Source: a plasmid. From it: a stretch of DNA of 64,000 nucleotides. A program made the position numbers and the translations under genes. The notes beneath the pieces are model-generated. The model saw only the letters and a list, made by a program, of their open reading frames with translations. It was not told the DNA's origin and did not search any database. Shown here in pieces: positions 4,061 through 45,411 of the stretch. Position 1 is the first letter of the stretch; each line of letters opens with the position of its first letter. Where the stretch lies: the NCBI RefSeq assembly GCF_056746865.1, contig NZ_JBWKMP010000003.1; one strand, written 5' to 3'.

Positions 4061-4157
4061 GTTTTCTAACATAAAAGTCCTGTGACAAATTTATGCTGAA
4101 TAACAAGGTGAGTAAAGGATAAAACCGCTTTTTTTTGATTGTTCCTATTAGAAAATG
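4061..4157. promoter_or_regulatory. two operator-like motifs upstream of the immunity-slot gene
   Basis: GTTTTCTAACA at 4061-4071 and ATTAGAAAATG at 4147-4157; same motif family as the palindromes at 24565 and 35913. Confidence 0.4.
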
Positions 4158-4239
4158 TAACCAGGAGCGGCTACCGCATGGCTGACGGATTTGCGAAGTG
4201 ATCTGGTCGGTGTTTTTTTGGGAAAAAAGTTCCGATTTC

Positions 4240-4271
4240 TAACTTTAAATAATTGGCATTATTTAAAGTTA
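4240..4271. other. rox recombination site (Dre target)
   Basis: TAACTTTAAATAAT-TGGC-ATTATTTAAAGTTA: perfect 14-bp inverted arms around a 4-bp asymmetric spacer; its reverse complement matches the rox site as I recall it; 152 bp upstream of dre. Confidence 0.85.
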
Positions 4272-4423
4272 GGCTATAATCTCCAGTAAACAGGCAGTAT
4301 TGACAAGGATGAAAAATCATGCCTCGAATCAAAGGCTTGAATTTTGAAAATTAACTTATAACTACCCTGTCAGTTTTCTATTTTTCACGTAGCGTTATCT
4401 GTATATAGAGGTTTAATAGTTTC

Positions 4424-5452
4424 ATGGGTGAACTAGTTATCTCCGGCGGTTCTGGTGGTTTTCTGCGCGATATTGGCACCGAATACCAGGAAGCTGCAAA
4501 AAACTTTATGCAGTTCATGAACGACCAGGGAGCTTATGCTCCAAATACGCTTCGAGATCTCCGTCTGGTGTTTCATTCCTGGGCGCGGTGGTGTAATTCG
4601 CGCCAGCGCCCCTGGTTCCCGATTACGCCGGAAATGGCCCGCGAGTATCTTCTCCAGTTGCATGAGGCCGATCTGGCCTCGACCACCATTGATAAGCACT
4701 ATGCCATGCTTAACATGCTGCTTTCGCAATGTGGCCTCCCGCCGCTGTCGGACGATAAAAGTGTGTCTCTGGCCATGCGGCGCATCCGGCGCGAAGCGGC
4801 AACGGAAAAAGGCGAGCGAACAGGCCAGGCTATACCGTTGCGGTGGGATGATCTGAAATTGCTCGACGTGTTGCTGTCCCGTTCCGAGCGGCTGGTGGAC
4901 CTGCGCAATCGGGCGTTTCTCTTCGTGGCATACAATACCCTGATGCGTATGTCAGAAATCTCGCGCATCCGCGTCGGAGATCTGGACCAAACAGGTGACA
5001 CTGTAACGCTGCATATTTCACACACGAAGACCATCACGACCGCCGCCGGACTTGATAAGGTGCTTTCTCGTTACACTACCGCCGTACTGAACGACTGGCT
5101 GGAGGTGTCCGGACTTCGAGAACATCCGGACGCGGTGCTATTCCCGCCAATACACCGCAGTAATAAGGCCAGAATCACGACAACGCCCCTTACTGCACCT
5201 GCAATGGAGAAAATATTCAGCGATGCCTGGGGGTTGCTGAACAAACGAGATGCCACGCCGAACAAAGGAAGATACCGGACGTGGACAGGCCATAGTGCGC
5301 GTGTTGGTGCGGCAATTGATATGGCTGAGAAACAGGTGTCAATGGTCGAGATCATGCAGGAAGGTACATGGAAAAAGCCCGAAACACTTATGCGATATTT
5401 GCGCCGTAGCGGGGCATCCGTTGGTGCAAATAGTCGCCTGATGGACTCATAA
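4424..5452 (+). CDS. dre: Cre-family tyrosine recombinase Dre
   Basis: 342 aa, colinear with Cre from the N-terminus; RHR and catalytic-Tyr region present (TGHSARVGAA..LMRYLR); paired with the rox site. Confidence 0.85.
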   Translation: MGELVISGGSGGFLRDIGTEYQEAAKNFMQFMNDQGAYAPNTLRDLRLVFHSWARWCNSRQRPWFPITPEMAREYLLQLHEADLASTTIDKHYAMLNMLLSQCGLPPLSDDKSVSLAMRRIRREAATEKGERTGQAIPLRWDDLKLLDVLLSRSERLVDLRNRAFLFVAYNTLMRMSEISRIRVGDLDQTGDTVTLHISHTKTITTAAGLDKVLSRYTTAVLNDWLEVSGLREHPDAVLFPPIHRSNKARITTTPLTAPAMEKIFSDAWGLLNKRDATPNKGRYRTWTGHSARVGAAIDMAEKQVSMVEIMQEGTWKKPETLMRYLRRSGASVGANSRLMDS

Positions 5453-5498
5453 ATTAATTTTCTAACAACCTTTTTAGACAGTGCATTTTAATGTAAAG

Positions 5499-5527
5499 TA
5501 CCCTCGCCTATTGCGGAGGGTACTTTG
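5499..5527 (+). terminator. intrinsic terminator after dre
   Basis: GTACCCTCGCC-tatt-GCGGAGGGTAC hairpin followed by TTTG. Confidence 0.5.
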
Positions 5528-5629
5528 CACAATCGTATTACGGAATCAAAACGCTTCACTGTTGACGGTTACACCATAACCTTCACTGCGGGCGTTAAGC
5601 GCGACCAGGCGGTCGTGGTGTTCGGTGTT

Positions 5630-5869
5630 ATGACCGGACTTGATGCCGTTCCCGTATTTACCCTCGAAAAAAACTGGCGAAATCTGGAGGAAGCTGAACG
5701 CTACGTCCGGAAAGTAACCGTCATTGCTGCTGAAAAACTCCTGGCCCACTATCAGGAAAATTATCGCGCTATGACCGAGAAAATTAACCATGTTTTCACT
5801 CGCCCCACCAGCGGCTTCATTGCCCCTGATGCGAATGCCGGGCGCTATCCGGCAAGGGGGCGCAAATGA
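5630..5869 (+). CDS. hypothetical protein (start uncertain)
   Basis: The ORF track's TTG start at 5525 overlaps the dre terminator, so the first in-frame ATG at 5630 is used; stop overlaps the next gene. Confidence 0.3.
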   Translation: MTGLDAVPVFTLEKNWRNLEEAERYVRKVTVIAAEKLLAHYQENYRAMTEKINHVFTRPTSGFIAPDANAGRYPARGRK

Positions 5870-6354
5870 AAACTTACTACCCATCCCTGAACTGTTATCC
5901 AACCACTAATCCTGAGCTGTCAGGGAAACTTCTGTCCCTCCTGGCTGATAGTCCTGATGAATGGCATAAGCCTGGTGATATCAACACACAGTTCCCTGAG
6001 TACGGGTGTATCCGCACCCGAAATGAGCTGAAGAACCTCATTGCTCACGGTTTTGTCCGTCACCGTAGCGGGAAAGGCTATCAGTTGGCTATCCCACAAG
6101 GAGAGGCAAGAGAACTCTTTGGCTATCGAGAAAGCCAGACGCAAGCGCGGGTGATCGCAGAAATTATCCGTAATGGCAGCGTCTATGCCCGCAAATTCTG
6201 GCTGTCTGGCGGTGGTGATGCATCACAGTTCTTGCGTGCTGTGCGATCGCTGGAGGAACAAGGTGTTATCGAGAATACCTGCGTCTCCGTTCCGACCGCT
6301 CCGCATATCAAACGCCGGATTTATACATTTACCCGGAGAGCTAAAAAGCAATGA
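5866..6354 (+). CDS. hypothetical protein
   Basis: ATG with AAGGGGG Shine-Dalgarno; stop overlaps the dut ATG (ATGA). Confidence 0.5.
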   Translation: MKTYYPSLNCYPTTNPELSGKLLSLLADSPDEWHKPGDINTQFPEYGCIRTRNELKNLIAHGFVRHRSGKGYQLAIPQGEARELFGYRESQTQARVIAEIIRNGSVYARKFWLSGGGDASQFLRAVRSLEEQGVIENTCVSVPTAPHIKRRIYTFTRRAKKQ

Positions 6355-6845
6355 TTAACGTGAAAGTGAAACGCCTTCATCCGGCGGCAAAACTCCCCGT
6401 TTACGCCACCGCCGGATCGGCGGCGATGGATTTTGTTGCTGTTGAAATAACGCCGGGTATCGATAGCAACGGCGCTATTTCCTCAAGCTGGTGGGTGCAT
6501 ACCGGCCTCGCTATGGCGATCCCTCCTGGCTGGTGTCTGAAACTTTATCCTCGTTCCGGATTGGGCTGCAAAAAGCATACGCGCCTGGCTAACTGCGTAG
6601 GAATTATCGACTCCGATTATCGCGGTGAAATCAAAGCAAAACTGATTACAGATCCCGGTGGTGAAGGCGTTTGCCTCAAGCCAGGAATGGCGGTCATGCA
6701 AGGCATTTTTGAGCGTGTTGAACCGGTATCGCTGGTAGAAGTTGATGAACTCGATGAAACAGAGCGAGGTGCTGGTGGCTTTGGTAGCACATCGGAAGAC
6801 CGCATTGAAATCAAGCGTACACCGCTTCAGTACGCAAAGTTTTAA
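6351..6845 (+). CDS. dut: dUTP diphosphatase
   Basis: Trimeric dUTPase motifs: AGSAAMDF, YPRSGLG, GIIDSDYRGE, RGAGGFGSTS. Confidence 0.85.
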   Translation: MINVKVKRLHPAAKLPVYATAGSAAMDFVAVEITPGIDSNGAISSSWWVHTGLAMAIPPGWCLKLYPRSGLGCKKHTRLANCVGIIDSDYRGEIKAKLITDPGGEGVCLKPGMAVMQGIFERVEPVSLVEVDELDETERGAGGFGSTSEDRIEIKRTPLQYAKF

Positions 6846-6859
6846 GTAGAGGAAAGGCT

Positions 6860-7510
6860 ATGAATAACATGCCAACGAAAGAGCTTTTTAAGTTCCTTCC
6901 CAAATACAAAGCTCACAAAAACGTTAGTGCATCGAAAATTAAAAATGTTGTTATTTTCGGAGTAACTGATGCCCCACTTTGGGGCTGCATCGAACTCGTT
7001 GAACCAAAAGGGGCAACAGTTTGTGTTGACGCAATGTTTTTACAAAAACACCGACCAAAAACTGGCGGGTATCTGATCGTTTATGAAAACGGTTATCTGT
7101 TCTATGCCCCGGAGAAACCATTTGAGGAATGCTATGGCCTGGTTAACGACGCCTCCAAAAATGGAACCACGGTCATCATTACGGATGACAACGGCGTGAT
7201 GATTAATCTTACTGGGAGCGTAACTATTTCTGCTGGTGGCATCACCACCCAGCAAGAAGAAATCGACCTTGAAGCAGCCGACTTCTCTGATGCGCTAATG
7301 TGGTTGAAGGAAGGCAAGAAAGTTGCCCGACGCGAGTGGAAAGGCGAAAAGCAATTCTGCTGGTTAGTTCTCGCTGGAAGCGTCAATTTACACGGCATTC
7401 ACGTTCCTTATGGTGACCATTTTGTATTGAAAGATGCACAAAATATGGACAGCGTTTGGTTGCCGTCTGTGGATGATTTACTGGCCTGTGACTGGTTTGT
7501 TGTGGAGTGA
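6860..7510 (+). CDS. fusion protein: unknown N-terminal domain plus C-terminal DUF2829 (Tad2-like) domain
   Basis: C-terminal ~75 aa (FSDALMWLKEGKKVARREWKG...WLPSVDDLLACDWFVVE) matches the DUF2829 pattern as recalled; GAGGAAAGG Shine-Dalgarno. Confidence 0.55.
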   Translation: MNNMPTKELFKFLPKYKAHKNVSASKIKNVVIFGVTDAPLWGCIELVEPKGATVCVDAMFLQKHRPKTGGYLIVYENGYLFYAPEKPFEECYGLVNDASKNGTTVIITDDNGVMINLTGSVTISAGGITTQQEEIDLEAADFSDALMWLKEGKKVARREWKGEKQFCWLVLAGSVNLHGIHVPYGDHFVLKDAQNMDSVWLPSVDDLLACDWFVVE

Positions 7511-7516
7511 TTTAAC

Positions 7517-8323
7517 GTGGAAAATACCAAGAACATTCAATATCGCTTGCGTAACGGCCTGCTGGTGGATGTAAACGATGATATGTCCCTGCCCTTTGCC
7601 ACCATTGAGCGAACCATCCTTACATACCTGGGCTTAGACGAAGAGTTAGATAGTGAGAATGGCATTGCTATCTGGCGTGACGGAAAAACGGGAGTCAGAC
7701 GTTTTATTACGGCAAGAGGCATTCAGTGCACACAGGAAGAATTGTTTGAACTGGCGCAGTCTTATGGATGCATCGCGTTAGATCCCCTGTATGACCCAGC
7801 CATAGCACAACAACTCATTCGAGAGCTGTCGCTTTCGGTCACGCCAATAATCTTCCGCCAGGGAACCTTAACCGGCACATGGCGTGTAGAACGCATCTCT
7901 AAATATCAGCCATATAATATCCATTTGAACGGCACTATTACTGGTGTGGATCAACCAGTAGCAGGTGAAAACAAAGACCTGGAACTTGCAGTAATGATGG
8001 CAGCTTGTCGCGTGCTTGGCCTGGGCAAGCAGATGTTTATCCATTTCCCAAACGGCGCGGAAGGCGAAGTAGAGCTGATTTCCTGCGACTTTTCCTTAAC
8101 CTGGATGCTTGATGAATTCCTGGACAAAACAGTATTCCGTGCTGAAGAACTGGATATGTATGTCACCTCAAGTATTCCTAATGACGTGAAAGTTGAGGCC
8201 ATCGCTACAGCCAGGGCGAAATGCCGTGCGGCGATTGCAGAACAGGCCAAAGAAGAACAGTCCGATGAAGTCGCGGCAGATGTGGAGGCAGAGGTAGCGG
8301 AGGATGCTGATGCTGACGCCTAA
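7517..8323 (+). CDS. hypothetical protein with acidic C-terminal tail
   Basis: GTG start with GGAG Shine-Dalgarno; 268 aa; ends in an Asp/Glu/Ala-rich tail. Confidence 0.45.
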   Translation: MENTKNIQYRLRNGLLVDVNDDMSLPFATIERTILTYLGLDEELDSENGIAIWRDGKTGVRRFITARGIQCTQEELFELAQSYGCIALDPLYDPAIAQQLIRELSLSVTPIIFRQGTLTGTWRVERISKYQPYNIHLNGTITGVDQPVAGENKDLELAVMMAACRVLGLGKQMFIHFPNGAEGEVELISCDFSLTWMLDEFLDKTVFRAEELDMYVTSSIPNDVKVEAIATARAKCRAAIAEQAKEEQSDEVAADVEAEVAEDADADA

Positions 8324-9410
8324 AAACATCACCGAATTACCAGAGTGGAGAGAGCTGGTAAGCAAATATAGCCATGACTGGGCATTAGCAGCAGAAGAGT
8401 TGATGGGTGTTAAGTTAACCCACCAGCAAAAGCTAATTGTTGAGGCGATTCAACAAAAAGGTTCAGCAGTCAGCGTCACCACTCCTGAAGGGATAGGCCA
8501 AAAGACGGTTATCGCTATAATTAGTATTCTTTATACAATCCTGATGCCTGAGTCTAAAACGGTTATTGTTTCCCCAAAGTTCTATAATTGTCGCAGGCAA
8601 GTTATCCAATACATAAGTACGTATTGGGATAGAGTCAGTAACAGAATCCCATTGCTGGGAGAATATTTTAAAGTCGACGGAAACGGCATCAATCATCGTT
8701 ACCGGGAATATTGGGGCTGCGAAATTAAGCCATATCACCGAAATTATGAGGAAGGTTTCGGTGGATATTATGCTGAACATCTTTTAATCATTGTTACGGA
8801 GGCGGCTCTTGCTGGCGATCGGCTATTCAGCATGTTAAGAGCATCGTTAGTAAGTGACGATTCACGTATACTTTTAATGTCCGCTCCTTCAGAGGAGGAG
8901 CATGGACACTTTTACGATTCCCATCATGGTCGTGCAAAATCAGAAGAAAATCCATGTGGTATTTATACAGCCATCAAGCTGAACGCAGAAGATACCCCCA
9001 TTATTTCACAAGGTTATCTTGATAACATTGCAGAAATATATGGTGGTAAAAACAGCGATTACTACCGTCGCATGATTCTTGGTGAGTTTCCAGGTATTAG
9101 GGAGGCTGTTCTTGAATCAGATATGCCGAAAACAATGCGCTTTTCGATGCCTGATGGTAGTGAATGGATAATGCCATTACGAGTGATAGCCCGGCATCAT
9201 GCACAGCACCACGCCAAAAAACATGGCGTTACAACATTGGAGTGGTTGAAATCGCACACCATTCCACTCTTCACTGCAGATCACAATGCTATCGTTGAGT
9301 GGGCAAAAACAATTCCGTGGGAGAATGTCGCTGAATACGCCCACATGCTAAAACCGCCGAAAGACAGGCAAGAAATTAGCTGGCTGACAGCAGAAAAAAT
9401 CATTGAGTGA
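8304..9410 (+). CDS. terminase-large-subunit ATPase-domain paralog with degenerate Walker motifs
   Basis: Clear similarity to the 1460-2968 ATPase domain (THQQKLIVEAIQ.. vs SHQQQQIIQSVQ..; FYDSHHGRAKSEENP vs FYESHHSRAKAEGNP), but Walker A reads TTPEGIGQKT and Walker B IVTEAA; no nuclease-domain counterpart. Confidence 0.6.
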   Translation: MLMLTPKNITELPEWRELVSKYSHDWALAAEELMGVKLTHQQKLIVEAIQQKGSAVSVTTPEGIGQKTVIAIISILYTILMPESKTVIVSPKFYNCRRQVIQYISTYWDRVSNRIPLLGEYFKVDGNGINHRYREYWGCEIKPYHRNYEEGFGGYYAEHLLIIVTEAALAGDRLFSMLRASLVSDDSRILLMSAPSEEEHGHFYDSHHGRAKSEENPCGIYTAIKLNAEDTPIISQGYLDNIAEIYGGKNSDYYRRMILGEFPGIREAVLESDMPKTMRFSMPDGSEWIMPLRVIARHHAQHHAKKHGVTTLEWLKSHTIPLFTADHNAIVEWAKTIPWENVAEYAHMLKPPKDRQEISWLTAEKIIE

Positions 9411-9416
9411 TAGTAG

Positions 9417-9447
9417 GAAGCCCGCCTGGTTGAGCGGGCTTCTTTTC
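9417..9447 (+). terminator. intrinsic terminator after the rightward dut operon
   Basis: GAAGCCCGC-ctggttga-GCGGGCTTC hairpin followed by TTTTC. Confidence 0.5.
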
Positions 9448-9826: not shown

Positions 9827-10047
9827 TATCGGTTAACCAGTTCCTTGTTGGTGGAGTCCAGGGTGTCAAACAGGGATGCAAATTCAGCATCCAGCGCCGC
9901 TTTTTTGTAGGCTTCGAAAGTAGCCTTGCTGACAATTACTGCTGGCTCACGGCCTCTGCGGGTGATTTCAACCTCTTCCCCGGCTTCAACATTGTTGAGC
10001 ACTTCAGAAAGGTTGCCACGCGCGGTACGGAAGTTAATGGATTGCAT
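9826..10047 (-). CDS. phd: Phd antitoxin
   Basis: [32 protein letters not shown]...; start taken at the second ATG of the track ORF. Confidence 0.85.
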
Positions 10048-10884: not shown

Positions 10885-10886
10885 AT

Positions 10887-19447: not shown

Positions 19448-19490
19448 AATGTATACCGACTCTGTTTTGTTCCGAGCGGTAAAATAATAT

Positions 19491-19520
19491 GTTAGAAAAT
19501 TAAAATCAATATTCTAACAC
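19491..19520. promoter_or_regulatory. operator-like imperfect palindrome (internal promoter region)
   Basis: GTTAGAAAAT..ATTCTAACAC between the phosphatase gene and the DUF968-like gene. Confidence 0.4.
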
Positions 19521-24564: not shown

Positions 24565-24596
24565 GTGTTAGAAAATCAATTTTGATTTTCTAACAC
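24565..24596. promoter_or_regulatory. palindromic operator in the divergent promoter region
   Basis: GTGTTAGAAAATCAA-tt-TTGATTTTCTAACAC; 15-bp arms, perfect apart from the centre. Confidence 0.55.
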
Positions 24597-24640: not shown

Positions 24641-25216
24641 ATGAAGCAAAGCTATTGGGAGAAACAGACACAAAAAGCCCTGCAAAAACTGGCTGATCCG
24701 AAATGGCGGGAGGAACAAAGGGCAAAGCGTCTTCAGCAAGCTCAACGCCAGCAGCAGCGTGCGCGAGAAAAAGCCGCATCGCCTGAATATCGGCAAAAGA
24801 AAATTGAAAAAGCGAAGCAATATGAACAGCGAAGAAAAGAGAAGGCCGCTTCTGCTCCTGTCAAAAAAACTCGCGCGTCACGCGGCCTGAAAGGCAGAAC
24901 ACTCACAGCAGATGAGCGCCGGATACAAACTGCCATCGGTGCTCTCCCCTGCATTGCCTGCCATATGCACGGACAGCATAGCCCTGTGGTATCCCTGCAC
25001 CACATCTTCGGGAGAACAGCAGAAAACGCGCATAAATACGTCCTCCCTTTGTGTAAATGGCACCATCAACACGCAGCGCCAGCAGAGATCCGCGAGCAAT
25101 ACCCCTGGTTGGTTCCTGTTCATGCTGATGGAAAAATAGGCGGCAAAGCAGATTTCAGGCGGCACAATGCTGATGAAATGACGTTGTATCAGATGGTGAC
25201 TGAATTAATAAATTAA
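24641..25216 (+). CDS. ref: Ref-like HNH endonuclease (recombination enhancement function)
   Basis: Highly charged, basic N-terminal region followed by a Cys/His HNH-like core (CIACHMHG...LPLCKWHH); start at ATG 24641, not the track's TTG. Confidence 0.5.
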   Translation: MKQSYWEKQTQKALQKLADPKWREEQRAKRLQQAQRQQQRAREKAASPEYRQKKIEKAKQYEQRRKEKAASAPVKKTRASRGLKGRTLTADERRIQTAIGALPCIACHMHGQHSPVVSLHHIFGRTAENAHKYVLPLCKWHHQHAAPAEIREQYPWLVPVHADGKIGGKADFRRHNADEMTLYQMVTELIN

Positions 25217-25547
25217 TTTTCTAACATTTTAAGTTGAATTGTGAAATTCGCCGTTGTACATTCACAACCGATTGGTACACCGGTCAACTTTTTGAGACAA
25301 ACCGTTTGGTTTTTCGTATGATTGCCGCCGCCATACCAATGGCGGTGCAATATAGGTGGCTGAAAAGCCCCCGTTGACTCACGGTGTTCCAACCTTTATT
25401 GCGCCGCCACCAGACCGTGGAACAGTCGATGGCGGCTCCGAAAGCAAGGAGTCACTACACTATGAACAGCTACTGTCTTTTCCCATCACTCGTTATCCGC
25501 CACTCACGCGATAATCTGCATTCTTTACTCGCGCTGGGGGTGTCAAA

Positions 25548-25715: not shown

Positions 25716-25818
25716 GAAAACACACAGTTGCGCCCTGGCATTATCGTGGGGTATATTTCTACGGCACCTTAGAAAAACGGGTGCCGGGATTGGAACCCCG
25801 GATAATGTCAAAGGCGAC

Positions 25819-25846
25819 ACAGACGCCGAACGCGTCTTTTTTTGTG
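25819..25846 (+). terminator. hairpin with T-run between target site 1 and the c4-like RNA
   Basis: AGACGC-cgaac-GCGTCT followed by TTTTTTGTG; short stem. Confidence 0.35.
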
Positions 25847-25892
25847 TCATGCCATCGCACAGCCATACTTAGCGTTTAGCTCAGAGATCAAT

Positions 25893-25972
25893 GGTAGTGC
25901 TGGCTGGGCTGCCGAAAGGCAGGCCGGTTCCCTTTGACGCCGGTAGTTCCAACCCAGTCAGTGCTACCGCCA
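25893..25972 (+). ncRNA. c4-like antisense regulatory RNA (immI-type)
   Basis: About 80 nt; acceptor-like stem GGTAGTGC / GTGCTACC followed by G-CCA; internal GNRA hairpin CTGCC-gaaa-GGCAG; single-stranded CCCTTTGAC and GTTCCAACC complementary to sites at 25787-25814 and 25975-26020. Confidence 0.4.
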
Positions 25973-26028
25973 TTGAGATTGGAACCTCACGCGGTAGCTC
26001 CTTAACTTAGTCAAAGGAGGCTGCCAAT

Positions 26029-26244: not shown

Positions 26245-27185
26245 TGAATCTGTCCATCTCTCAAAAAGCGACAATGACCAGCATTGAGATCGCGGAACTG
26301 GTAGGAAGTCGCCCAGATAGTGTGAAGAGAACTATCGAAACACTGGCTAAAAAGAGTGTGATTCAATTTCCACAATCTGTGGAAATTGAAAATAAACAAT
26401 CAGTTGGCCCTCGTCGATTTTCCAAGGCTTACATCTTTGAAGGCGAACAAGGAAAACGAGACAGCATCATTGTCGTCGCGCAGCTCTCTCCGGAATTTAC
26501 CGCCCGGCTGGTGGACCGCTGGCGCGAACTGGAGAATGCCCGGGTACAGTTAAAATCCAAAGCCGAAATCCTGGCCGAAATGGCGCAAATGCATCTTGAG
26601 CATGAACGCCGGATCAACGCCGTTAATGCCCAGGTAGCCGAAGTATCGGCACAAGTGTCCAGGGTCACCGAAACACTTGAGCAGATCAAGAAAGGCAATA
26701 TTCCAGAAGGCTACATTGGCTATCGCCAGTTGGCGGCAAAATGCGGCCTGACTGAAGCCAAATGCCGCAACCTGGTCAACGCTTACCGGATACCCACTGA
26801 TACGCATGAGTTTTTAACTCCCGACGGTTTGCTTGCGCGACGCTCCATTGTGGCCCTGGCCCCCTTCCGGAAAGCCTTTAAGCAGGTTATGTCGGAGGCA
26901 GAACCACGTAACAAACGCTGGTATCATCCCAGGATGGGGCTATTTCAGGCCATTCACCATCCTGTGCCTGAAAGTCCAAAGGCAAACCTGTCGTTGCATA
27001 CCGCCAGAGAGAAGATTAAAACAGGGTATGCAACCGTATGCCGTCGAGCATCCTGGCCTGAAAGTGTCTGGGTATGGCCCGAAAGAGGCTCACGGAAAAA
27101 CTGGCGCACCATTCGCGACGGCAAGATCTGTGCGATTGATTTACAGCCAGAAGATGTAGCAGCGACCGACTGGATTGTTAGTTAA
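26244..27185 (+). CDS. antirepressor-like protein (Rha-type N-terminal domain)
   Basis: N-terminal TSIEIAELVGSRPDSVKRTIETL resembles the Rha / phage-antirepressor N-domain; occupies the ant position. Confidence 0.55.
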   Translation: MNLSISQKATMTSIEIAELVGSRPDSVKRTIETLAKKSVIQFPQSVEIENKQSVGPRRFSKAYIFEGEQGKRDSIIVVAQLSPEFTARLVDRWRELENARVQLKSKAEILAEMAQMHLEHERRINAVNAQVAEVSAQVSRVTETLEQIKKGNIPEGYIGYRQLAAKCGLTEAKCRNLVNAYRIPTDTHEFLTPDGLLARRSIVALAPFRKAFKQVMSEAEPRNKRWYHPRMGLFQAIHHPVPESPKANLSLHTAREKIKTGYATVCRRASWPESVWVWPERGSRKNWRTIRDGKICAIDLQPEDVAATDWIVS

Positions 27186-29511: not shown

Positions 29512-29842
29512 TCAACTCAGTAGCTTTGTTAACTCCCTTAATACCAGGTAGAAGAGTAACAAAAATACTAACGCCAGTATTTGCGTGGTCAACGAGGCGT
29601 TCATAAACAGAACAATTAGCTTTAACAATTCGAGAATAACGTCCATGTCATTCACACTATTTAATTTTTAATCTACAGCCAGCAAACAATGAAGCTGGCC
29701 CCCGCATAAAGATTAATGAAAGTCACTTGTCACCAGTGAGGGGATTTATGAACCACATCCCCCTGAACTGGTGGACTGTCTGTTTCTCGCATTTCACACC
29801 CTGCATACAGTTCCCCCCAGGTTATGACTGTGAGGAACTGTT

Positions 29843-35912: not shown

Positions 35913-35956
35913 AAAACTGTGTTAGATAATTGAGTTTTATTTTCTAACACAGTTTT
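35913..35956. promoter_or_regulatory. palindromic operator upstream of rdgC
   Basis: AAAACTGTGTTAGA ... TCTAACACAGTTTT: perfect 14-bp arms with GTTAGA / TCTAAC cores. Confidence 0.5.
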
Positions 35957-37533: not shown

Positions 37534-38285
37534 TATTGGTGCTAAATTTATTTCTTATAGCGACAATCATCGTCCTGCGGCGGAAGCCACTATCAGCCAT
37601 ATGCGACGTATTCGCTCGGAGGACGAATTTGATCGCCCAGTCTTTAAGTGGGTCGGCGGCAAATTTTCTGCACTGCCCATTATCTTCGAACACCTGCCCC
37701 ACGGAAAACGGTTGATAGAACCTTTCGTTGGAGGTGGCGCTGTTTTCACTAATGCCGGATTTAAAAGCAACCTGCTGAACGATATCAATAATGACCTGAT
37801 TAACTTCTATCAGACATTGCAGCGTGAAGGGCATTCTCTTATCACACTGGCATATCGTTTTTTTCAGGATTACAACTCTGCTGATGCATTTTTGAATGTT
37901 CGCAATGCATTCAACAATGGTGCTTATGATTCCCTTCACCATGCAGCGGCGTTCCTGTATCTCAATCGTCATTGTTTTAATGGCGTCACTCGCTATAACC
38001 GTAAAGGAGAGTTCAACGTCGGATATGGAAAGCAGAAATCACCCCACTTCCCTCTCGCGGAAATGGAGGCGTTCCTGGCTGACGATATTTCAAAGTATTC
38101 GGAATTTGTGTCCGGCGATTTTGCTGGTGTAATTGAGGCTGCCGGGAATGATGATGTGATTTTCTGCGATCCCCCCTATGAACCATTGCCTGACACTACC
38201 GGATTTACAAATTACTCAGGGCATAGCTTTAGGTTTGAAGATCAACAACGGCTGGTGTCACTGCTGGTGGATGCTGGATTTGCCC

Positions 38286-39191
38286 CTATATTTCCAGACA
38301 CCTGTTATCACTTAACCCATTACTGGCCCGCTGCCGTAGATATTCCCGTGGCGAGCGATAACCCAGTGCACTATGCGGATGCCATTCGTTATAATGCTCG
38401 AACGCCTCTGCAAGGTTCTTTGCTGCCGTTAACCCGTCTGGTTTAGGCATGATACTGATGTAGTCACGCTTTATCGTTTTCACGAAGCTCTCTGCTATGC
38501 CGTTACTCTCCGGACTCCGCACCGCCGTGTTCTTCGGTTCAAGCCCCAACATCCGGGCAAACTGCCGTGTTTCATTAGCCCGGTAGCATGAACCATTATC
38601 CGTCAGCCACTCTACTGGAGACGCCGGAAGCTCGTTGCCGAAGCGGCGTTCCACCGCTCCCAGCATTACGTCCTGTACTGTTTCACTGTCGAAGCCGCCC
38701 GTAGTGACTGCCCAGTGCAGTGCCTCACGGTCACAGCAGTCCAGCGCGAACGTGACTCGCAGTTTTTCTCCGTTATCACAGCGGAACTCGAACCCGTCAG
38801 AGCACCATCGTTGATTGCTTTCTTTCACGGCCACTTTGCCAGTATGTGCCCGTTTCGATGGCGGTACAGCGGTTTTTCGCTCAAGCAACAGCGCATTCTG
38901 GCGCATGATCCGGTAAACACGTTTGGCATTGATCGCAGGCATACCATCAAGTTCGGCCTGTCTGCGAAGCAGCGCCCATACCCGACGATAACCATACGTG
39001 GGCAGCTCTCCGATAACATGGTGTATACGGAGAAGCACATCCGTATCATCTGAGTGACGGCTGCGGCGACCATCTTTCCAGTCATCGGTTCGTCTGAGAA
39101 TGACGTGCAACTGCGCACGCGACACCCGGAGACAACGGCTGACTAAGCTTACTCCCCATCCCCGGGCAATAAGGGCGCGTGCGCTATCCAC
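38286..39191 (-). CDS. insD: IS2 transposase InsD (orfB)
   Basis: 301 aa, very close to IS2 InsD as recalled ([38 protein letters not shown]..). Confidence 0.9.
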
Positions 39192-39514
39192 TTTTTTGCA
39201 CGCCCGTATTCAACGGCTTCTTTAAGGAGTTCATTTTCCATCGTTTTTTTGCCGAGCAGGCGCTGGAGTTCTTTAATCTGCTTCATGGCAGCAGCAAGTT
39301 CAGAGGCAGGAACGACCTGCTCTCCTGCGGCCACAGCAGTAAGACTTCCCTCCTGGTATTGCTTGCGCCAGAGAAATAACTGGCTGGCTGCCACACCGTG
39401 TTGCCGGGCAACAAGGGAGACCGTCATTCCCGGTTCAAAACTCTGCTGAACAATAGCGATCTTTTCCTGTGTAGTACGCCGTCTGCGTTTCTCCGGTCCT
39501 AAGACATCAATCAT
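39149..39514 (-). CDS. insC: IS2 InsC (orfA)
   Basis: [26 protein letters not shown]..; start at the internal ATG of the track ORF. Confidence 0.85.
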
Positions 39515-39780
39515 CTGCTCTCCAATGACTAGTCTAAAAACTAGTATTAAGACTATCACTTATTTAAGTGATATTGGTTGTCTGGAGATTCAGGGGGCCA
39601 GTCTAGATGCCCACAGACGCGGAGCGAAAATTGTGATAACAAACAGTGGTGCGCCTAACATTCGCGAACTTTACGTTGGCAATGGCTTCAAGGTGTATCC
39701 TATGCCATCCCGTCGCTCTGTATCCTGTAAAGCATCAACGCGAATGATAGCTAACGACATTATAGCCACACTTAATTAAG

Positions 39781-39903: not shown

Positions 39904-39914
39904 TCATTCCGGCG

Positions 39915-40202
39915 TCATTTTGTATCCTCAGACTCTGCAAGCATGAGGATAGCATGGCGGATCATATTCAATTTGCTGCGATTATGCTTTTTGCTTAACG
40001 CATCAAGTACCTGGTACTCGTATTCATTGAAGCCAACACGAATGGATTTAAAATCACGTGGGGCGTCCTTATCGAGCACTTTGTTGTCTTCTGGTTGCTC
40101 ACCCGGCACCAAATCAGCTTTGCTGGCAAAAGCCTCAATTCGGCGTTCAAGATCGAGGTCTTTTACTTCGGGGGCTTTTACCGATTTACGAGGCTTAATC
40201 AC
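39915..40202 (-). CDS. ParG-like small partition protein
   Basis: 95 aa, directly downstream of and overlapping the ParA-like ATPase gene. Confidence 0.45.
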   Translation of the reverse strand: MIKPRKSVKAPEVKDLDLERRIEAFASKADLVPGEQPEDNKVLDKDAPRDFKSIRVGFNEYEYQVLDALSKKHNRSKLNMIRHAILMLAESEDTK

Positions 40203-40836
40203 TTAATAACTCCTTAACCAACATCTGGATTTCACCTTTAGCTTTCCCGTTGTCCATCTCAACAACGCCCTTCCCTTCAGCCATACAATCGCGGTAAACC
40301 TTGCGATCGCGAATGATGGTTTTCAGCAACTTCAGTTGCGGATATTCAGCCAGGTACTCTTTGGCCTCATTGGCTTCATTCACAACCGGATTGGATGGGG
40401 CCATTGTTAAAACTGCGCACGCCTTAATGCTAGGATTAGGCATCAGATCCAAAGCCTCTTCAAAGACTTCAACAAAATGCGCCAGCGTGTCTAAATCTGG
40501 CTGAGATGGCCTGAATGGAACAAGCAAAACATCCGCCGCAGTAATACCGGTGCGCATCTCTTTGCTATCACGACCAGCGGTATCAACAACCACAAATTCA
40601 TAACGCTTGTCCAGATCAAGAAGTGTTTCACGAATATTCCCAAACTTCTGGACGCAATGAATTACTGGAGAAACCTCTGCCGCATTACGGTCCGATGCCC
40701 AACGGGCAGATGTTCCTTGCTTATCTGCATCAAGTAGAACTACGTCCTTATTTGCGCGGGCAAGCTCCGCACAAATGTTTACGCTGGTGGTTGATTTGCC
40801 ACAGCCACCTTTTTGGCTGGCTACCAATATAATCAT
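40195..40836 (-). CDS. ParA/ParF-type partition ATPase
   Basis: Deviant Walker A SQKGGCGKSTT; 213 aa, small-ParA size. Confidence 0.7.
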   Translation of the reverse strand: MIILVASQKGGCGKSTTSVNICAELARANKDVVLLDADKQGTSARWASDRNAAEVSPVIHCVQKFGNIRETLLDLDKRYEFVVVDTAGRDSKEMRTGITAADVLLVPFRPSQPDLDTLAHFVEVFEEALDLMPNPSIKACAVLTMAPSNPVVNEANEAKEYLAEYPQLKLLKTIIRDRKVYRDCMAEGKGVVEMDNGKAKGEIQMLVKELLSD

Positions 40837-40992
40837 ATCCGTCCCTCGGTGTTATTTTGGTATCAAAATGGCTCCAAACAGAAGCCTTATTGATGCGGTT
40901 TTGGCTCTATAGTGGAGTCACTATGCTTTGCAAAAGTATAACACTAAACACTCGAAATTTGCCCTCTGTTGCATCCTGTTTAACACGAAGTC

Positions 40993-41055
40993 AGCCTCAA
41001 AGTGGAACCAGACACAAAACAGCACCACAACAACACCGTTTTGGTACTAAAAGAG
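40993..41055. repeat. repeat block flanking the ParA/ParG-like operon (right copy)
   Basis: AGCCTCAAAGTGGAACCAGACACAAAACAGCACC and CAACACCGTTTTGGTACTAAAAG; related to 39837-39903. Confidence 0.45.
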
Positions 41056-41121
41056 CACCAAATTAGAACCATAACAGTATAAAAAAGGCTGCAAATTGCA
41101 GCCTTTGAAGATGTAGATTTG

Positions 41122-41487
41122 TTAATCAGGGAGTGAGTTTGCCAAATTCTGTGCAGAGCGGCTTTTCGAAACGCCAGGTTTTTTAACATCCGCTGAGGCT
41201 GAGGGGTTTCCTTCAGGGTTTTCCCGAACTTCAGGCGAAATTTCAAGAAATGAAACCAGCATTTTTCTGATCACTTCAGGGCTATTATCACCGGATAAAA
41301 GCGATGCCAACATGGGAGGTAATCTGCTATCAACCTCGCCAAGAGCGATACCTGCAAGCATCGCTGTGCGCGCCATATCATTGCGATCTCTTAATGGATG
41401 GCCCTCAAGTTTTGCATCAGCATATTGCTCACTGGCGTTAAGACCAGGACGAAGATAAAACAATACTTTTCGACGTTCCTGAGACAT
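41122..41487 (-). CDS. parR: ParR-like centromere-binding protein
   Basis: RRKVLFYLRP...RNDMARTAMLAGIAL parallels R1 ParR; immediately downstream of parM. Confidence 0.6.
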   Translation of the reverse strand: MSQERRKVLFYLRPGLNASEQYADAKLEGHPLRDRNDMARTAMLAGIALGEVDSRLPPMLASLLSGDNSPEVIRKMLVSFLEISPEVRENPEGNPSASADVKKPGVSKSRSAQNLANSLPD

Positions 41488-41497
41488 GGCAACCTCA

Positions 41498-42454
41498 TCA
41501 ACCGATAGATTTTAGACCATAGACAAGAGCAAGTTGTGGATCATCAGCAACGAAAAACCTATCGTCACGAATGTTTACCTGCTCACGGATAGCATCAGCA
41601 ACAAGCGGCGCGCCGCCACCAATGACCATAACATGCGTGTATCCTTTGAAATCACTGATCACATCCAGTACGCGTGTACGGAGTCGTTCTATGCTTGACG
41701 AAATGGCTTTCTTAACATCATCAATAGCAGACGGATCGTTAATATTGTCGGTCAAATAATCCTCATCATCACGATTAATGATTAATTGATCGACATTATA
41801 ATTAGAGGTTTCGGTATTCGCTTTTGCAAGTGCCTGTCTGACCTCTTTAGTTACCAGCGAAACGCCGAGATTAGAATCGCCAAATACGCGAGAAACGGCG
41901 GTCATTTGCCCGGCGACCATCGACACATCCAGAGTAGTCCCACCAAGATCAACAATAAGCACAGAATGCGCTGGCACAAGGCTGTCGCACAGACCGATCC
42001 CTGCGGGTATTGACTCCGGGCGCACAGTCACTTTTTTGATAGTAAAAACCTGACCTTTGTTAAGGGTGACTGGTCGCATCAGGCTGGCCTTTTTCCGCTC
42101 AATATTTTTCATGTTGTATTGTGCGTCGTCGTCATAAAACTCTGCCAGTGGCAACGTGACAACTATTTCCACTTCTTGAGGCTCAATGCCACTTGTAAGC
42201 AGGGCATGATGAACAGCAAGCACATTAAGCGGGCTGTATTGCCATTCAACGTTATTCGTCGGCAGCACATCCGGCGAGATCAAGTCATATGAATATTTTT
42301 CGTCATCAATGATGTAGTTAAACGGCTTTCCTGCGCCAAATGTGGCGGACCATCCACGTTTAAAACTGTTCGGACAGATATGGGTTCGAGTTTCCCCGTC
42401 TTGTTCCCACAGCATTTTGATATTGGTAGAACCATCGTCGATAAAAATGCGCAT
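41498..42454 (-). CDS. parM: ParM (StbA) actin-like partition ATPase
   Basis: MRIFIDDGSTNIK..HICPNSFKR..AVHHALLTSG..IVDLGGTTLD..YTHVMVIGGGA is colinear with R1 ParM; start at the second ATG. Confidence 0.85.
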   Translation of the reverse strand: MRIFIDDGSTNIKMLWEQDGETRTHICPNSFKRGWSATFGAGKPFNYIIDDEKYSYDLISPDVLPTNNVEWQYSPLNVLAVHHALLTSGIEPQEVEIVVTLPLAEFYDDDAQYNMKNIERKKASLMRPVTLNKGQVFTIKKVTVRPESIPAGIGLCDSLVPAHSVLIVDLGGTTLDVSMVAGQMTAVSRVFGDSNLGVSLVTKEVRQALAKANTETSNYNVDQLIINRDDEDYLTDNINDPSAIDDVKKAISSSIERLRTRVLDVISDFKGYTHVMVIGGGAPLVADAIREQVNIRDDRFFVADDPQLALVYGLKSIG

Positions 42455-42555
42455 CATATTGCTCCACTTCTGAGACACATTTGAGAAAGAATTGAATTTT
42501 ATATGAGAAAACAAAATAAGACCAGAAGTTAGATAGCGTAAAAAGCATCAAACAA

Positions 42556-42644
42556 GAGACGTAAGAGAGACGCAAAAGAGACTTAGATGATACATGATGT
42601 ACCCACGATACCCGTTTGAGACAAATCAGAGACAAATGTGAGAA
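42556..42644. repeat. parC-like centromere iterons
   Basis: GAGAC / GAGAA cores at 42556, 42567, 42578 and 42618, 42629, 42640 with 11-bp phasing; two triplets flank a ~35-bp core upstream of parM. Confidence 0.5.
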
Positions 42645-42706
42645 GTAAGAAATCTGAAGAGTGAAAATCACAAAGTGGAGAAGATTTAAGAAAAAGGAGG
42701 TGTTAG

Positions 42707-42991
42707 ATGAGTGCAATAGCGACCAGTGACACAGTTTGTTCTGGTCATGGAGGATTCCCTCCGCGACCTGTAGCAGAAACAGTTTCCTGGTTTACCGTAA
42801 ATGGAAAGCCAGTGGTTGTAGATGGGGGAGCGTTCCCCAGCCATACAGACGGAAATAGCGCGCACCCCGGATCAGCCGTATCGACGCGCTCATGGTTTGC
42901 AATAGGCGGGAAAGGAGTTGTTTGTGTGGGAGATCCCCTTTCTTGTGGCTCAGTCATCGCCAATGGTGAGGCAATTTTTCAGGTGTCATAA
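42707..42991 (+). CDS. PAAR-domain spike-tip protein
   Basis: 94 aa; PAAR-like pattern (CSGHGGFPP...VNGKPVVVDG...GDPLSCGS); strong AAAAAGGAGG Shine-Dalgarno. Confidence 0.55.
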   Translation: MSAIATSDTVCSGHGGFPPRPVAETVSWFTVNGKPVVVDGGAFPSHTDGNSAHPGSAVSTRSWFAIGGKGVVCVGDPLSCGSVIANGEAIFQVS

Positions 42992-43785
42992 TGCTTGATT
43001 CAATCGCTGAAGTTAATGCATTCAAAATTCTAAATGCATCAGGCACAACTACGCCTGCATCTATCACGCTAAGTAAAACAGCGTCATCCAATGCCAGTTC
43101 TCTGGAAGAGAATATCCAGGCTCTTATCCTGAAGGATAAAGCATACCCGGCGTCGGTGGTTTCATGGGTCAATCAGCTTTCTGTCTTTTCAGAACAACTG
43201 AAAACTGTCAGTGCAGAAGCAACCAATTTAGCCGACTCGCTGTCTCCGTATACTTCGCCAACTGAATTACTTCAGATGAAAATTGGCTGGGAATGTTACG
43301 TCAAAGGTAATGAGTTATCTCCTGCGCCAGAATTTGCTCTCGTAACAGTTATGGGAGATACCCTGCATCCGCAATCGCTTATTGACGCGTTGGCAGCATT
43401 TGAACTGGTGCCAATCACTTCAGCCATGACCGCTATAAATGCAAAAGTTCAGGCGTCAAGCGGGGAGGCTTCAGGCAACGGAAGTTCCACCGGAACAACA
43501 CAGCAACCAGCACTAACAGAAGAAGAGATCAAAGCACTAAAAGACGCTGTGGAAGCAGCAACAGAACAAATAAATGCAATAAACAACACGAGCAGTAGTC
43601 TCTCAACACTTGTACAGCAAGTTAAGGACTCTACCGGAAAAGCCAAACAGGGACTGGAGAATGCTGTAGCTATTACGTTAACCGGTTCTCTACTGGGCGA
43701 TGAAGTAATGAGTCCGGCAATCAGTTTGATCATGCCACAAGGTGTGATCGATGCGCTCCAAAACAACACTAAAAAGGAACCATAA
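42991..43785 (+). CDS. hypothetical protein
   Basis: 264 aa; ATG overlaps the PAAR stop. Confidence 0.45.
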   Translation: MLDSIAEVNAFKILNASGTTTPASITLSKTASSNASSLEENIQALILKDKAYPASVVSWVNQLSVFSEQLKTVSAEATNLADSLSPYTSPTELLQMKIGWECYVKGNELSPAPEFALVTVMGDTLHPQSLIDALAAFELVPITSAMTAINAKVQASSGEASGNGSSTGTTQQPALTEEEIKALKDAVEAATEQINAINNTSSSLSTLVQQVKDSTGKAKQGLENAVAITLTGSLLGDEVMSPAISLIMPQGVIDALQNNTKKEP

Positions 43786-43855
43786 CCACACCATTTAAGC
43801 CCATAAATGGTTACAAATTGGTACACATATCACACCAACAAAAAATCTGAAGAGG

Positions 43856-44314
43856 ATGGTTTTGAAAAAGATAATTTTGATAGTAGTTGCGCTTTTAGCC
43901 ATTTATGGAATTTACCGTACTACGGCGGCAGTTATCGATCACATCAGGTATATCCGTTCCCTGGAAGACTCAAAATCACAACTTGAAAGCGAGAACAACA
44001 CGCTTTCTACCGCATTGCAGTTAAGTGAAAAATCGCGATCTGCCATGATGGCTGAAAACGAAAGAATTAAAACACTGGAGAAGGAGTACCAGCGCAAAAC
44101 AGCAGAACTGAATACCAGCCTGATCAAACAACGGGAGGAAAGCCAGAATGAAATCAATCGTCTTGAAACTGCGTTACGCAATGCCGGGGTTAATGATGTG
44201 CGTGTGCCTGATGACGTTATCAGGATGCAGCGGGAACGGGCAAAAGAAATCAATCAGCGTGCCAATGCAAATTACCGTAGAAGCCACCAGCAAACCGCAG
44301 GGAAATCTGATTGA
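43856..44314 (+). CDS. Rz-like inner-membrane spanin candidate
   Basis: N-terminal transmembrane helix followed by coiled-coil-rich sequence. Confidence 0.45.
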   Translation: MVLKKIILIVVALLAIYGIYRTTAAVIDHIRYIRSLEDSKSQLESENNTLSTALQLSEKSRSAMMAENERIKTLEKEYQRKTAELNTSLIKQREESQNEINRLETALRNAGVNDVRVPDDVIRMQRERAKEINQRANANYRRSHQQTAGKSD

Positions 44315-44528
44315 TTATACCCCTTGCATAGTGCCAGAGGACACGCCTGTGCTGTTAAACAAGTATCCGGCATACACTGAACAGTTATTCAGCACTATCG
44401 ATGAATGCAACCAACGAAACGCACTGAATAACCAAAGGAATAGGGAGATTTGGGAAGGGAAGGGGGTTAAGGCTCCTGAAGCCAGATGTCCTGGCTGTCA
44501 GCTTCTTCGAAACCGTGACAGACGTTAA
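44148..44528 (+). CDS. Rz1-like outer-membrane lipoprotein spanin candidate
   Basis: Starts inside the Rz-like gene in another frame; lipobox LSGC. Caveat: its 3' end overlaps a convergent ORF by about 60 bp. Confidence 0.35.
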   Translation: MKSIVLKLRYAMPGLMMCVCLMTLSGCSGNGQKKSISVPMQITVEATSKPQGNLIDYTPCIVPEDTPVLLNKYPAYTEQLFSTIDECNQRNALNNQRNREIWEGKGVKAPEARCPGCQLLRNRDRR

Positions 44529-44949
44529 AGTCACTCAAGCGATACTGGCGCTGACGGCCTCTATTTCGCTCATGCCAATGCATATATCCACCAGCAAATG
44601 CCAGCGGACAATCGCTATAGTCGATGTAGCCAATACCATTACCCAAACGCGCTTCGCGCGCCCCGGCTTTCCAGGACAGCAGAAAAGAGTCACGATCTGC
44701 CAGCATGACTACAAAATCATCCAGATCGCCTATGCAGTGAAGAATGCCTGCCTTGCATAACTGTTTGAGTGCCTTGGACTGACTCAGGATGTCTTCACCG
44801 TAATACTGAAAACAATCATCAACAATAGCGGGATAGCCAGCGGGTGGATTCAGGCTGGTTGGTATAGCTGACGCGATAGCCAGCATTAAACGATATTGTG
44901 TTTTCGATGGGTTCGCGTGACTCATGTTTCCTCTACTCACTGTCTCCAT
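44467..44949 (-). CDS. hypothetical protein
   Basis: 160-aa ORF, second gene of a leftward pair. Confidence 0.4.
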   Translation of the reverse strand: METVSRGNMSHANPSKTQYRLMLAIASAIPTSLNPPAGYPAIVDDCFQYYGEDILSQSKALKQLCKAGILHCIGDLDDFVVMLADRDSFLLSWKAGAREARLGNGIGYIDYSDCPLAFAGGYMHWHERNRGRQRQYRLSDFNVCHGFEEADSQDIWLQEP

Positions 44950-45329
44950 GCATTTTTCAGCTCCGGAATATCAGCCATTTCAACCAGCTTCCGAAGCCCC
45001 GCGCTGACCTTCCCATTACCAACCGCAGCAAGCCAATCCCTTACTGACTTCGGCATATAAAGAGTGGTCGTTACAGGATCTTCCACTCTTACAGGCGTGC
45101 CAATTTGAGGCCACTTAACAGATGCCAAAACGTCAGAAGGCGGGGTAAGCGCGGGAACATTAAGAATAGCCTTTCCTGAATGGAGAATCACGATTCGTTC
45201 AGCCAGGGAAAGAATGTCTCTTTCAGTAAGGATTGATGACAGTTGAGCTTCTACAAGGCATCTGCTGCTTGTATTCAGAGAATGGCTTTTAGCACCATTT
45301 TTGTATGAAACGAAGATCTTGTACGCCAT
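44937..45329 (-). CDS. hypothetical protein
   Basis: 130 aa; ATG at plus 45327-45329; operator-like motifs lie immediately upstream. Confidence 0.45.
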   Translation of the reverse strand: MAYKIFVSYKNGAKSHSLNTSSRCLVEAQLSSILTERDILSLAERIVILHSGKAILNVPALTPPSDVLASVKWPQIGTPVRVEDPVTTTLYMPKSVRDWLAAVGNGKVSAGLRKLVEMADIPELKNAWRQ

Positions 45330-45330
45330 T

Positions 45331-45411
45331 TGTTCTAATGTTTTATGTTAGAAAATTAAGATTAAACCATACTAACACAAGATTGTTAACGAAAATTATT
45401 TTTCTAATGCT
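45331..45411. promoter_or_regulatory. divergent control region with three operator-like motifs
   Basis: TGTTCTAATG (45331), GTTAGAAAATT (45347), TTTTCTAATGC (45401); TTGACT -35-like hexamer at 45412. Confidence 0.4.

Follow-up and report, generated by a model that had tools for sequence, protein, structure and literature searches.

A dispersed 17-bp motif in a D6-like plasmid prophage, probably the operator of its own C1 repressor

Introduction

What reads a short motif that recurs in the gaps between the genes of a P1-type plasmid prophage? The question arises in a stretch of 64,000 nucleotides (nt) of plasmid DNA (NCBI RefSeq assembly GCF_056746865.1, contig NZ_JBWKMP010000003.1; hereafter the window), across which a preliminary description had reported an operator-like motif, often in palindromic pairs, reminiscent of the scattered C1 operators of phage P1 with a different consensus. 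The window is 80–90% identical to Escherichia phage D6 over most of its length, and its left end matches the D6 immC region (lpa-pacA-pacB-c1-rox-dre); D6 is a P1-like circular plasmid prophage and, judged by sequence, the window is a D6-like plasmid prophage of the P1 type. We argue below that the motif is very probably the operator of the element's own C1 repressor, the product of the following gene:

3006–4043, minus strand: c1, encoding a C1-family prophage repressor of 345 amino acids, the putative binder (BLASTP, phrog_1678, PF27008 and an AlphaFold2 model)

The kind of system is known, from the C1 operator network of P1, and the window is a heteroimmune member with its own operator and regulon. 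The C1 protein of P1 has 22 dispersed operators of the consensus ATTGCTCTAATAAATTT and controls RepL and Lpa (PMC8546580). Comparisons were made with D6, whose C1 is 80% identical to the distinct allele of the window; with the E. coli plasmid pMUB-MIN14-1, whose C1 is 100% identical to it; with pHX138.33gt_1 (L009/L010; C1 66% identical; hereafter pHX138); with a Leclercia phage-plasmid (C1 about 30% identical); and with P1.

The motif and its sites

The core GTTAGAAAAT has seven exact matches in the window, both strands counted, against 0.15 expected and a maximum of one in 100 shuffles, so that the motif first reported is real and commoner than base composition predicts. Allowing up to one mismatch gave 17 matches against 4.8 expected, 11 of which are positions already named in the preliminary description (4061, 4147, 5457, 19491, 19509, 24567, 24585, 25216, 35921, 35939 and 45347). 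The other six (13790, 18300, 22251, 30157, 48361 and 51848) lie inside long open reading frames (ORFs), share no flanks and score at most 11 bits with the extended matrix; they are chance background.

When all sites were read in one orientation, an asymmetric 17-bp consensus, TGTTAGAAAATTAAWWT, emerged with GTTAGAAAAT as its core; TGTTAGAAAATTAATTT is the corresponding single-site operator oligonucleotide sequence, the putative target of the 3006–4043 protein. Across 32 distinct half-sites from four genomes there is no variation at positions 1, 3–6 and 14, and 30 of them have T at position 17. The position weight matrix search that had been suggested as a check found ten strong half-sites (22–28 bits) in the window, at seven loci, four of them single and three paired. 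The sites are of operator type, being dispersed, asymmetric, about 17 bp long, non-coding, and either single or in overlapping inverted pairs, and the intergenic placement first claimed holds for every member of the family in the window. An unbiased ranking of dispersed 10-mers, in which the top word in P1 is the known C1 operator (positive control), yields TGTTAGAAAA in the window, D6 and pHX138. The sites of the window, with two weaker ones, are as follows:

4055–4071, minus strand: putative single operator, TGTTAGAAAACTAAATC, 22.6 bits, 11 nt upstream of the c1 ATG, an autoregulation slot like that of P1 Oc1
4146–4162, plus strand: degenerate candidate site of uncertain status, TATTAGAAAATGTAACC, 8.0 bits, in the c1–rox gap
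5451–5467, minus strand: putative single operator, 28.2 bits, overlapping the dre stop codon, with the next ORF 58 bp on
19490–19519, unstranded: putative bivalent operator, a 30-bp inverted pair of 27.3 and 23.6 bits, in the gap between the ppp-like and pdcB-like genes, with the start of the latter 42 bp downstream
24566–24595, unstranded: putative bivalent operator, a 30-bp inverted pair of 26.6 and 25.7 bits, between a divergent early operon (small ORF start 24524) and ref, the slot of P1 Oref
25210–25226, minus strand: putative single operator, 28.2 bits, conserved, overlapping the ref stop codon and heading the C4 RNA-icd-ant immunity operon, the slots of P1 Omat and Oc4
35920–35949, unstranded: putative bivalent operator, a 30-bp inverted pair of 22.8 and 23.5 bits, occupying the greater part of the 67-bp gap ahead of rdgC/hrdC-dmt, the slot of P1 Odmt
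45346–45362, plus strand: putative single operator, 26.5 bits, in the gap that separates a small divergent gene (ATG 45329) from the major capsid gene (45489)
45393–45409, minus strand: weak auxiliary site in inverted orientation, CATTAGAAAAATAATTT, scoring 12.4 bits here and 20.3 bits at the corresponding position of pHX138

Several details of the preliminary description changed in the process. The palindromic pairs hold at the three 30-bp loci; the supposed second arm at the capsid site (45361–45377) scores −1.7 bits, is not kept in relatives and was rejected, which leaves the capsid site single. The string common to the 3′ ends of dre and ref is real, with a length of 19 nt rather than 18: ATAAATTAATTTTCTAACA occurs at 5449–5467 and 25208–25226, overlapping the TAA stop codon of dre and of ref respectively. 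The site at 4147 is degenerate at 8 bits, but its TTAGAAAA core is conserved, being invariant in the window, D6 and pHX138 amid otherwise unalignable DNA. TTCTAAC at 4237 is part of the rox recombination site, not of the operator family, and a match at 27176 (15.7 bits), within the last codons of ant and directly before a terminator hairpin, was not counted.

Conservation in relatives

All operator loci of the window are present in D6 at orthologous positions. In an alignment of seven orthologous gaps from the window, D6 and pHX138, the 11-nt cores were invariant at 96 of 109 positions (88%), against 315 of 561 (56%) for the rest of the same gaps (Fisher p = 3.7e-11). In a held-out test, the matrix trained on the window was run over the portion of D6 left uncovered by the window (4.2–31 kb) and returned five sites of at least 17 bits where 0.05 were expected, upstream of lpa, repL, icd-ant and pmgR/S. 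Over the whole of D6 there are 14 half-sites at 11 loci, none of them in coding sequence although this makes up 89.8% of the genome (P about 1e-11), and the whole of pMUB-MIN14-1 holds 17 half-sites of at least 16 bits. The conjugative Salmonella Typhi plasmid pK91 has kept a c1–dre fragment along with exactly its two flanking sites.

Individual loci follow the same pattern. The core at 4055–4071 is kept in D6 and pHX138; the site at 5451–5467 is kept in D6, pHX138 and the pK91 remnant, and also, in the same slot, in L013–L015; 19490–19519 and 45346–45362 are kept in D6, pHX138 and pMUB-MIN14-1; 24566–24595 forms an invariant island within a strongly diverged spacer; at 35920–35949 all 22 core positions are invariant in three genomes; and TTTATTTT.CTAA is conserved at the auxiliary site at 45393–45409.

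This conservation bears on the possibility that the palindromes form hairpins in RNA or serve as bidirectional intrinsic terminators. A terminator-like structure was flagged at 24565–24596, where TTTTGATCAA comes after a stem of 14 pairs, and T-runs come after several sites. However, at four of the seven loci there is just one half-site, which has no partner to pair with and is conserved equally well, and seven of nine inverted pairs differ between their arms at 2–4 of 13 positions with no compensation, the pair at 19490–19519 among them. The stems are A/T-rich with only four G-C pairs, the 24566–24595 pair lies between divergent genes where there is nothing to terminate, and a search of Rfam gave no family over any site. 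We reject this reading on the single sites, the uncompensated arms and the divergent-gene location, and regard it as scarcely credible.

As to the wider family, the c1 ORF of the metagenomic relative L013 (C1 50% identical) begins ATGTTAGAAAAATCAATT, and an operator-like word of 18 bits at 10001–10018 overlaps its start codon. The pK91 remnant (NZ_CP029871; L007/L008), at 59977–67834, is D6-like (hot, humD, phd/doc, dut, dre, c1) and sits on a conjugative multidrug-resistance IncFIB plasmid.

The C1 homologue and the operators of P1

The protein encoded at 3006–4043 aligns with P1 C1 at 21% identity over 241 amino acids (BLASTP E 1e-7), with the N-termini aligned. The C1 proteins of the window and P1 and the Leclercia homologue are all full-length members of phrog_1678 (5.9e-159 for the window protein), and PF27008 (Phage_P7_repressor_C1) was found on all homologues. 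The local Pfam-A collection gave no domain for C1, and the window protein scores 24 bits against the NCBIfam C1 equivalog cut-off of 500. By homology it is a distant relative of C1. Members of the family are few (57 clusters among 1.8 billion proteins) and there is no solved structure for any C1 relative.

All C1 operators and late promoters were extracted from the annotation of the P1 GenBank record. The P1 operators are asymmetric 17-mers (ATTGCTCTAATAAATTT), some of which overlap one another in inverted pairs spanning 28 bp (Oban, Oc1ab). Set against the window, D6, pHX138 and pMUB-MIN14-1, this annotation places operators at c1, lpa, repL, c4-icd-ant, ref and the dmt operon in both kinds of element:

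Upstream of c1: window 4055; P1 Oc1
Upstream of ref: window 24566–24595; P1 Oref
3′ end of ref: window 25210; P1 Omat, likewise at the ref 3′ end
Head of C4 RNA-icd-ant: window 25210; P1 Oc4
Upstream of rdgC/hrdC-dmt: window 35920–35949; P1 Odmt, which precedes uhr-hrdC-dmt
Upstream of lpa: D6 4632, pMUB-MIN14-1 80769/80782; P1 Olpa
Upstream of repL: D6 22467, pMUB-MIN14-1 62929, pHX138 26296; P1 OrepL
Second icd-ant operon: D6 21260, pMUB-MIN14-1 64138; P1 Oc4
pmgR/S: D6 10315 and 9066, pHX138 38866 and 40133, pMUB-MIN14-1 75746 and 76992/77005; P1 OpmgR

The likeness to the ImmC system of P1 and P7 therefore extends to a homologous repressor, to asymmetric 17-bp sites scattered over a plasmid prophage of about 90 kb and to the same kinds of gene. 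There are also differences: the window C1 is 62 residues longer at its C-terminus; the operator is TGTTAGAAAATTAAWWT here whilst it is ATTGCTCTAATAAATTT in P1; and P1 has no annotated equivalent of the sites at the dre 3′ end, in the ppp–pdcB gap and ahead of the capsid gene. In a D6-like plasmid the corepressor Lxc has been reported as undetected (PMC6799933).

The capsid site raises the question of whether the motif could instead be a late-promoter element recognised by the Lpa activator. The capsid gene does have one site upstream, an inverted repeat is a feature of P1 late promoters (PMC10695390), and D6 Lpa is only 31% identical to that of P1, so that its box could differ. The P1 late box, as found in 11 late promoters, is nevertheless a 9-bp inverted repeat, AAGTNACTT, at −22, followed after 4 nt by the −10 hexamer, and is unlike the motif in both sequence and geometry. 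Moreover, the motif is found at genes of the early and immunity classes (c1, ref, rdgC, repL, icd-ant) and ahead of lpa itself, and a separate late-box-like word, ATAACAAAGTGA, lies upstream of the window capsid gene, of pmgS and upfC in D6 and of PAAR/upfC in pHX138. The late-promoter reading was rejected on the difference from the 11 P1 promoters and the existence of this separate word, and it has next to no chance of being right.

With regard to late boxes themselves, the second word, (A)ATAACAA(A/G)GTGA, resembles aACAAGTGAC, the −22 region of P1 late promoters, and occurs in the window at 4100–4114 (c1–rox gap) and 45421–45435, in D6 at ~10305 and ~56905 and in pHX138 at ~70510; it may be the D6-type Lpa box, with a −10 spacing that differs from that of P1. 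The sole clean P1-type late box in the window (AAGTGACTT / AAGTCACTT, palindromic) is at 29720–29728, in the interval from mat to gene 26. D6 and pHX138 have kept it, and its position is that of the bidirectional LP26/LPpmgL of P1.

Site sequence and C1 lineage

P1-type and D6-type sites were found to be mutually exclusive, as expected of heteroimmune relatives. A matrix of P1 operators at a threshold of at least 15 bits gave 21 matches in P1 and none in the window (best 11.6), D6 or pHX138; the D6-type matrix gave none in P1. Nor do the window sites conform to the P1 consensus ATTGCTCTAATAAATTT, as those of an element of the same immunity specificity would. In its workings the system of the window resembles that of P1, but it falls into a separate specificity group.

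The sequence of the site varies from one C1 lineage to another. Elements whose C1 is 100%, 80%, 66%, 50%, 48% or 43% identical to that of the window all have the TGTTAGAAAA core in the same slots, with every match intergenic, and across these lineages the A/T-rich 3′ part of the site drifts. The Leclercia phage-plasmid has none of the D6-type sites, carrying instead CCTTAGAAT, cCTTAGAAT(T/C)N, at its c1, recombinase 3′, rdgC and ref slots, with 11 of 12 occurrences of this variant intergenic in a plasmid that is 84% coding; P1, more distant still, has ATTGCTCTAAT. A TTAGA core is present in all three variants, the P1 copy being on the opposite strand (ATTAGAGCAAT). The P1 and D6-type sites can be aligned in two ways, by a shared AATTAATTT 3′ arm or by the opposite-strand TTAGA core, and the orientations at orthologous slots are mixed.

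Within the TGTTAGAAAA group, position 10 of the operator is often T in pHX138 (TGTTAGAAATTT), including both arms of the ref pair; this may be a small shift of the preferred site alongside a diverged repressor.

Taken with the P1 comparison, these data bear out the C1-type operator network that had been likened to that of P1 with a different consensus: there is a C1 homologue, the same 17-mer design at the P1 slots, no P1-type operator, and a site that follows the C1 lineage. It is from the slot correspondence with P1, the C1 homology and the change of site with C1 lineage that we infer the 3006–4043 protein to be the binder. A different regulator, either another element protein or a host factor, might bind the sites instead. 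The change with lineage is confounded with the overall divergence of the elements, and the window and D6 encode other putative regulators (orf71, orf72). Yet the slots coincide with P1 operators annotated as C1-bound at eight kinds of gene, the architecture of asymmetric 17-mers and overlapping pairs is that of C1, and the pK91 remnant keeps c1 and two flanking sites without lpa, ant and most of the phage. Of host factors, integration host factor was considered and rejected, the sites not fitting its consensus WATCAANNNNTTR. Another regulator is accordingly improbable, and C1 remains the binder that we favour.

Proposed regulon and mechanism

In a lysogen, C1 would bind the asymmetric 17-bp TGTTAGAAAATTAAWWT, probably as one monomer per site, and would hold down c1 itself, the divergent early/accessory operon together with ref, the C4-icd-antirepressor operon, the rdgC-dmt operon and the promoter region upstream of the capsid gene. 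Outside the window the regulon would take in repL (lytic replication), the second icd-ant operon, pmgR/S and lpa; the late genes would be silent indirectly, as in P1, because lpa lies under an operator. The 30-bp inverted overlapping sites would probably take two monomers, covering short divergent or compact promoter regions. Together with the identity of the binder, we infer monomer binding and repression by promoter occlusion, the last because of operator position and the P1 analogy. The gaps that hold the sites are 67–160 bp long and the operators lie 11–46 bp from the nearest start codon, so that promoters must overlap or adjoin them; the c1–dre gap, of about 380 bp, contains rox as well as regulatory sequence. 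A conserved TTGTCA at c1 precedes the GAAAAC of the 4055–4071 site by 16 nt, which would make this operator the −10 region of the c1 promoter and so give autoregulation. The left arm of the rdgC pair reads GATAAT in all three genomes.

Several observations weigh against C1 repression in this form. A strict sigma-70 scan gave no canonical promoter over any site, and a −35 hexamer stands at the right distance from GAAAAT in just a few cases. Two of the strong sites overlap the dre and ref stop codons, away from any obvious promoter; the inverted pairs span 30 bp here, whilst they span 28 bp in P1; and the change of site with C1 lineage is inseparable from whole-genome divergence, so that another co-evolving regulator is possible. 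The idea that GAAAAT is the −10 hexamer of every target promoter was dropped, a good −35 at 16–18 nt being present only at c1, at the ref 3′ site and at a few others.

At the dre and ref stop codons the sites may perhaps serve instead, or additionally, as loop anchors or roadblocks. An alternative confined to the mechanism at these two loci, in which C1 binds as elsewhere, would make them roadblocks or anchors rather than promoter covers. Both overlap a stop codon within a shared 19-nt string, and each is paired with an operator across the same gene (4055 with 5451, and 24566 with 25210), as ref in P1 is bracketed by Oref and Omat. C1-mediated looping has been reported for P1, the repressor of mycobacteriophage L5 uses asymmetric 'stoperators' as roadblocks, and the Tus-like fold predicted below suggests a tight, possibly polar clamp. 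On the other side, the ref 3′ site is also upstream of C4-icd-ant, with the C4 antisense RNA found by Rfam downstream at 25887–25974, and may be the operator of that operon; it is accompanied by a conserved −35-like hexamer (TTCACA, TTTACA or TTTGCA) 18 nt away. We think roadblocks or anchors at these two sites unlikely, though well worth keeping in view beside promoter occlusion by C1.

The parallel with the stoperators of L5 gp71 covers the short asymmetric site, the monomeric repressor and the dispersed intergenic positions, some of them downstream of genes. However, gp71 is a helix-turn-helix protein unrelated to C1, with a 13-bp site, actinobacterial hosts and an integrated prophage.

Predicted fold of C1

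The AlphaFold2 model of the window C1 is of high confidence (predicted local distance difference test, pLDDT, 94.4; predicted template modelling score, pTM, 0.81). Its only significant matches among solved structures, using Foldseek, were to E. coli Tus bound to Ter DNA (E 7e-8 to 2e-6, probability 1.00, about 305 aligned columns). The model of P1 C1 (pLDDT 95.4) likewise matched Tus–Ter only (E 3e-9 to 3e-8, template modelling (TM) score 0.44–0.47). At the profile level, hhalign gave a probability of 8.8% and an E value of 0.0038 for C1 and Tus, which is not significant; it aligned the same central region (C1 85–197 with Tus 145–269) and placed the near-invariant R157/R159 strand of C1 on the KIKRPVK strand of Tus. 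No link between C1 and Tus was found in the searched literature, though one may have been noted elsewhere.

Tus binds as a monomer and Ter is asymmetric, and a Tus-like clamp would explain asymmetric C1 operators that are used singly. The window and P1 C1 proteins are predicted to share the fold, and the host range is the same as that of Tus–Ter. By contrast, the TM-scores of 0.38–0.47 indicate the same topology with a different domain placement, and C1 acts in transcriptional repression, from at least a dozen sites per 90 kb. The Ter site measures 23 bp, and most Enterobacterales have a resident tus gene (PMC8707476). A tentative proposal from these models, which we put forward in the awareness that it may well fail, is that C1 proteins of the P1 and D6 types are monomeric clamps of the Tus fold that share ancestry with Tus. 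Their operators would then be read like Ter, the dre and ref 3′ sites could be orientation-dependent roadblocks to transcription or replication besides covering promoters, and the three site variants would form a recognition code (ATTGCTCTAAT, TGTTAGAAAA, CCTTAGAAT).

Implications

Plasmid prophages of the D6 type occur widely in E. coli, Salmonella and Shigella, and PLSDB lists 152 plasmid records with a relative of the window C1. A 17-bp operator with a regulon map makes the immunity groups of phage-plasmids predictable from sequence alone, and allows both the design of reporter or chromatin immunoprecipitation experiments and a direct comparison with the lysis–lysogeny circuit of P1, here apparently without Lxc. 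The long-standing question of how P1 C1 reads an asymmetric site without a recognised DNA-binding motif becomes testable with the series of C1 proteins and operators and the Tus-like model; if the Tus fold is true, there is a possible evolutionary link between a phage repressor and a host replication terminator. No description of D6-type operators was found in the searched literature, which left out the D6 genome and D6 immC papers, and an operator list for D6 may already be in print.

Other features of the window

Downstream of ref, Rfam identified an isrK-like small RNA at 25764–25842 and the C4 antisense RNA at 25887–25974, just upstream of icd-ant; the two mark an ImmI-like immunity region. 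At 4237–4280 the rox site, TAACTTTAAATAATTGGCATTATTTAAAGTTA, is followed by a near-consensus promoter, TTGGCA-16-TATAAT (11 of 12 matches), with its −35 within the rox spacer, which presumably drives dre. Between the dre 3′ operator and the next ORF, at 5495–5526, there is a conserved inverted repeat, AAAGTACCCTCGCC-TATT-GCGGAGGGTACTTT, which is not a typical terminator because neither strand has a T-run.

The window differs from D6 in having an IS2 copy, at about 38274–39605, which matches many IS2 records at 95–99.8% identity; it is inserted beyond rdgC, in the downstream methyltransferase region. Among dispersed 10-mers, Chi (GCTGGTGG) and words that overlap it show the strongest over-representation in the window, in D6, pHX138 and P1 and in the Leclercia plasmid; examples in the window are at 8420, 10362, 12823, 24489, 44284 and 46750.

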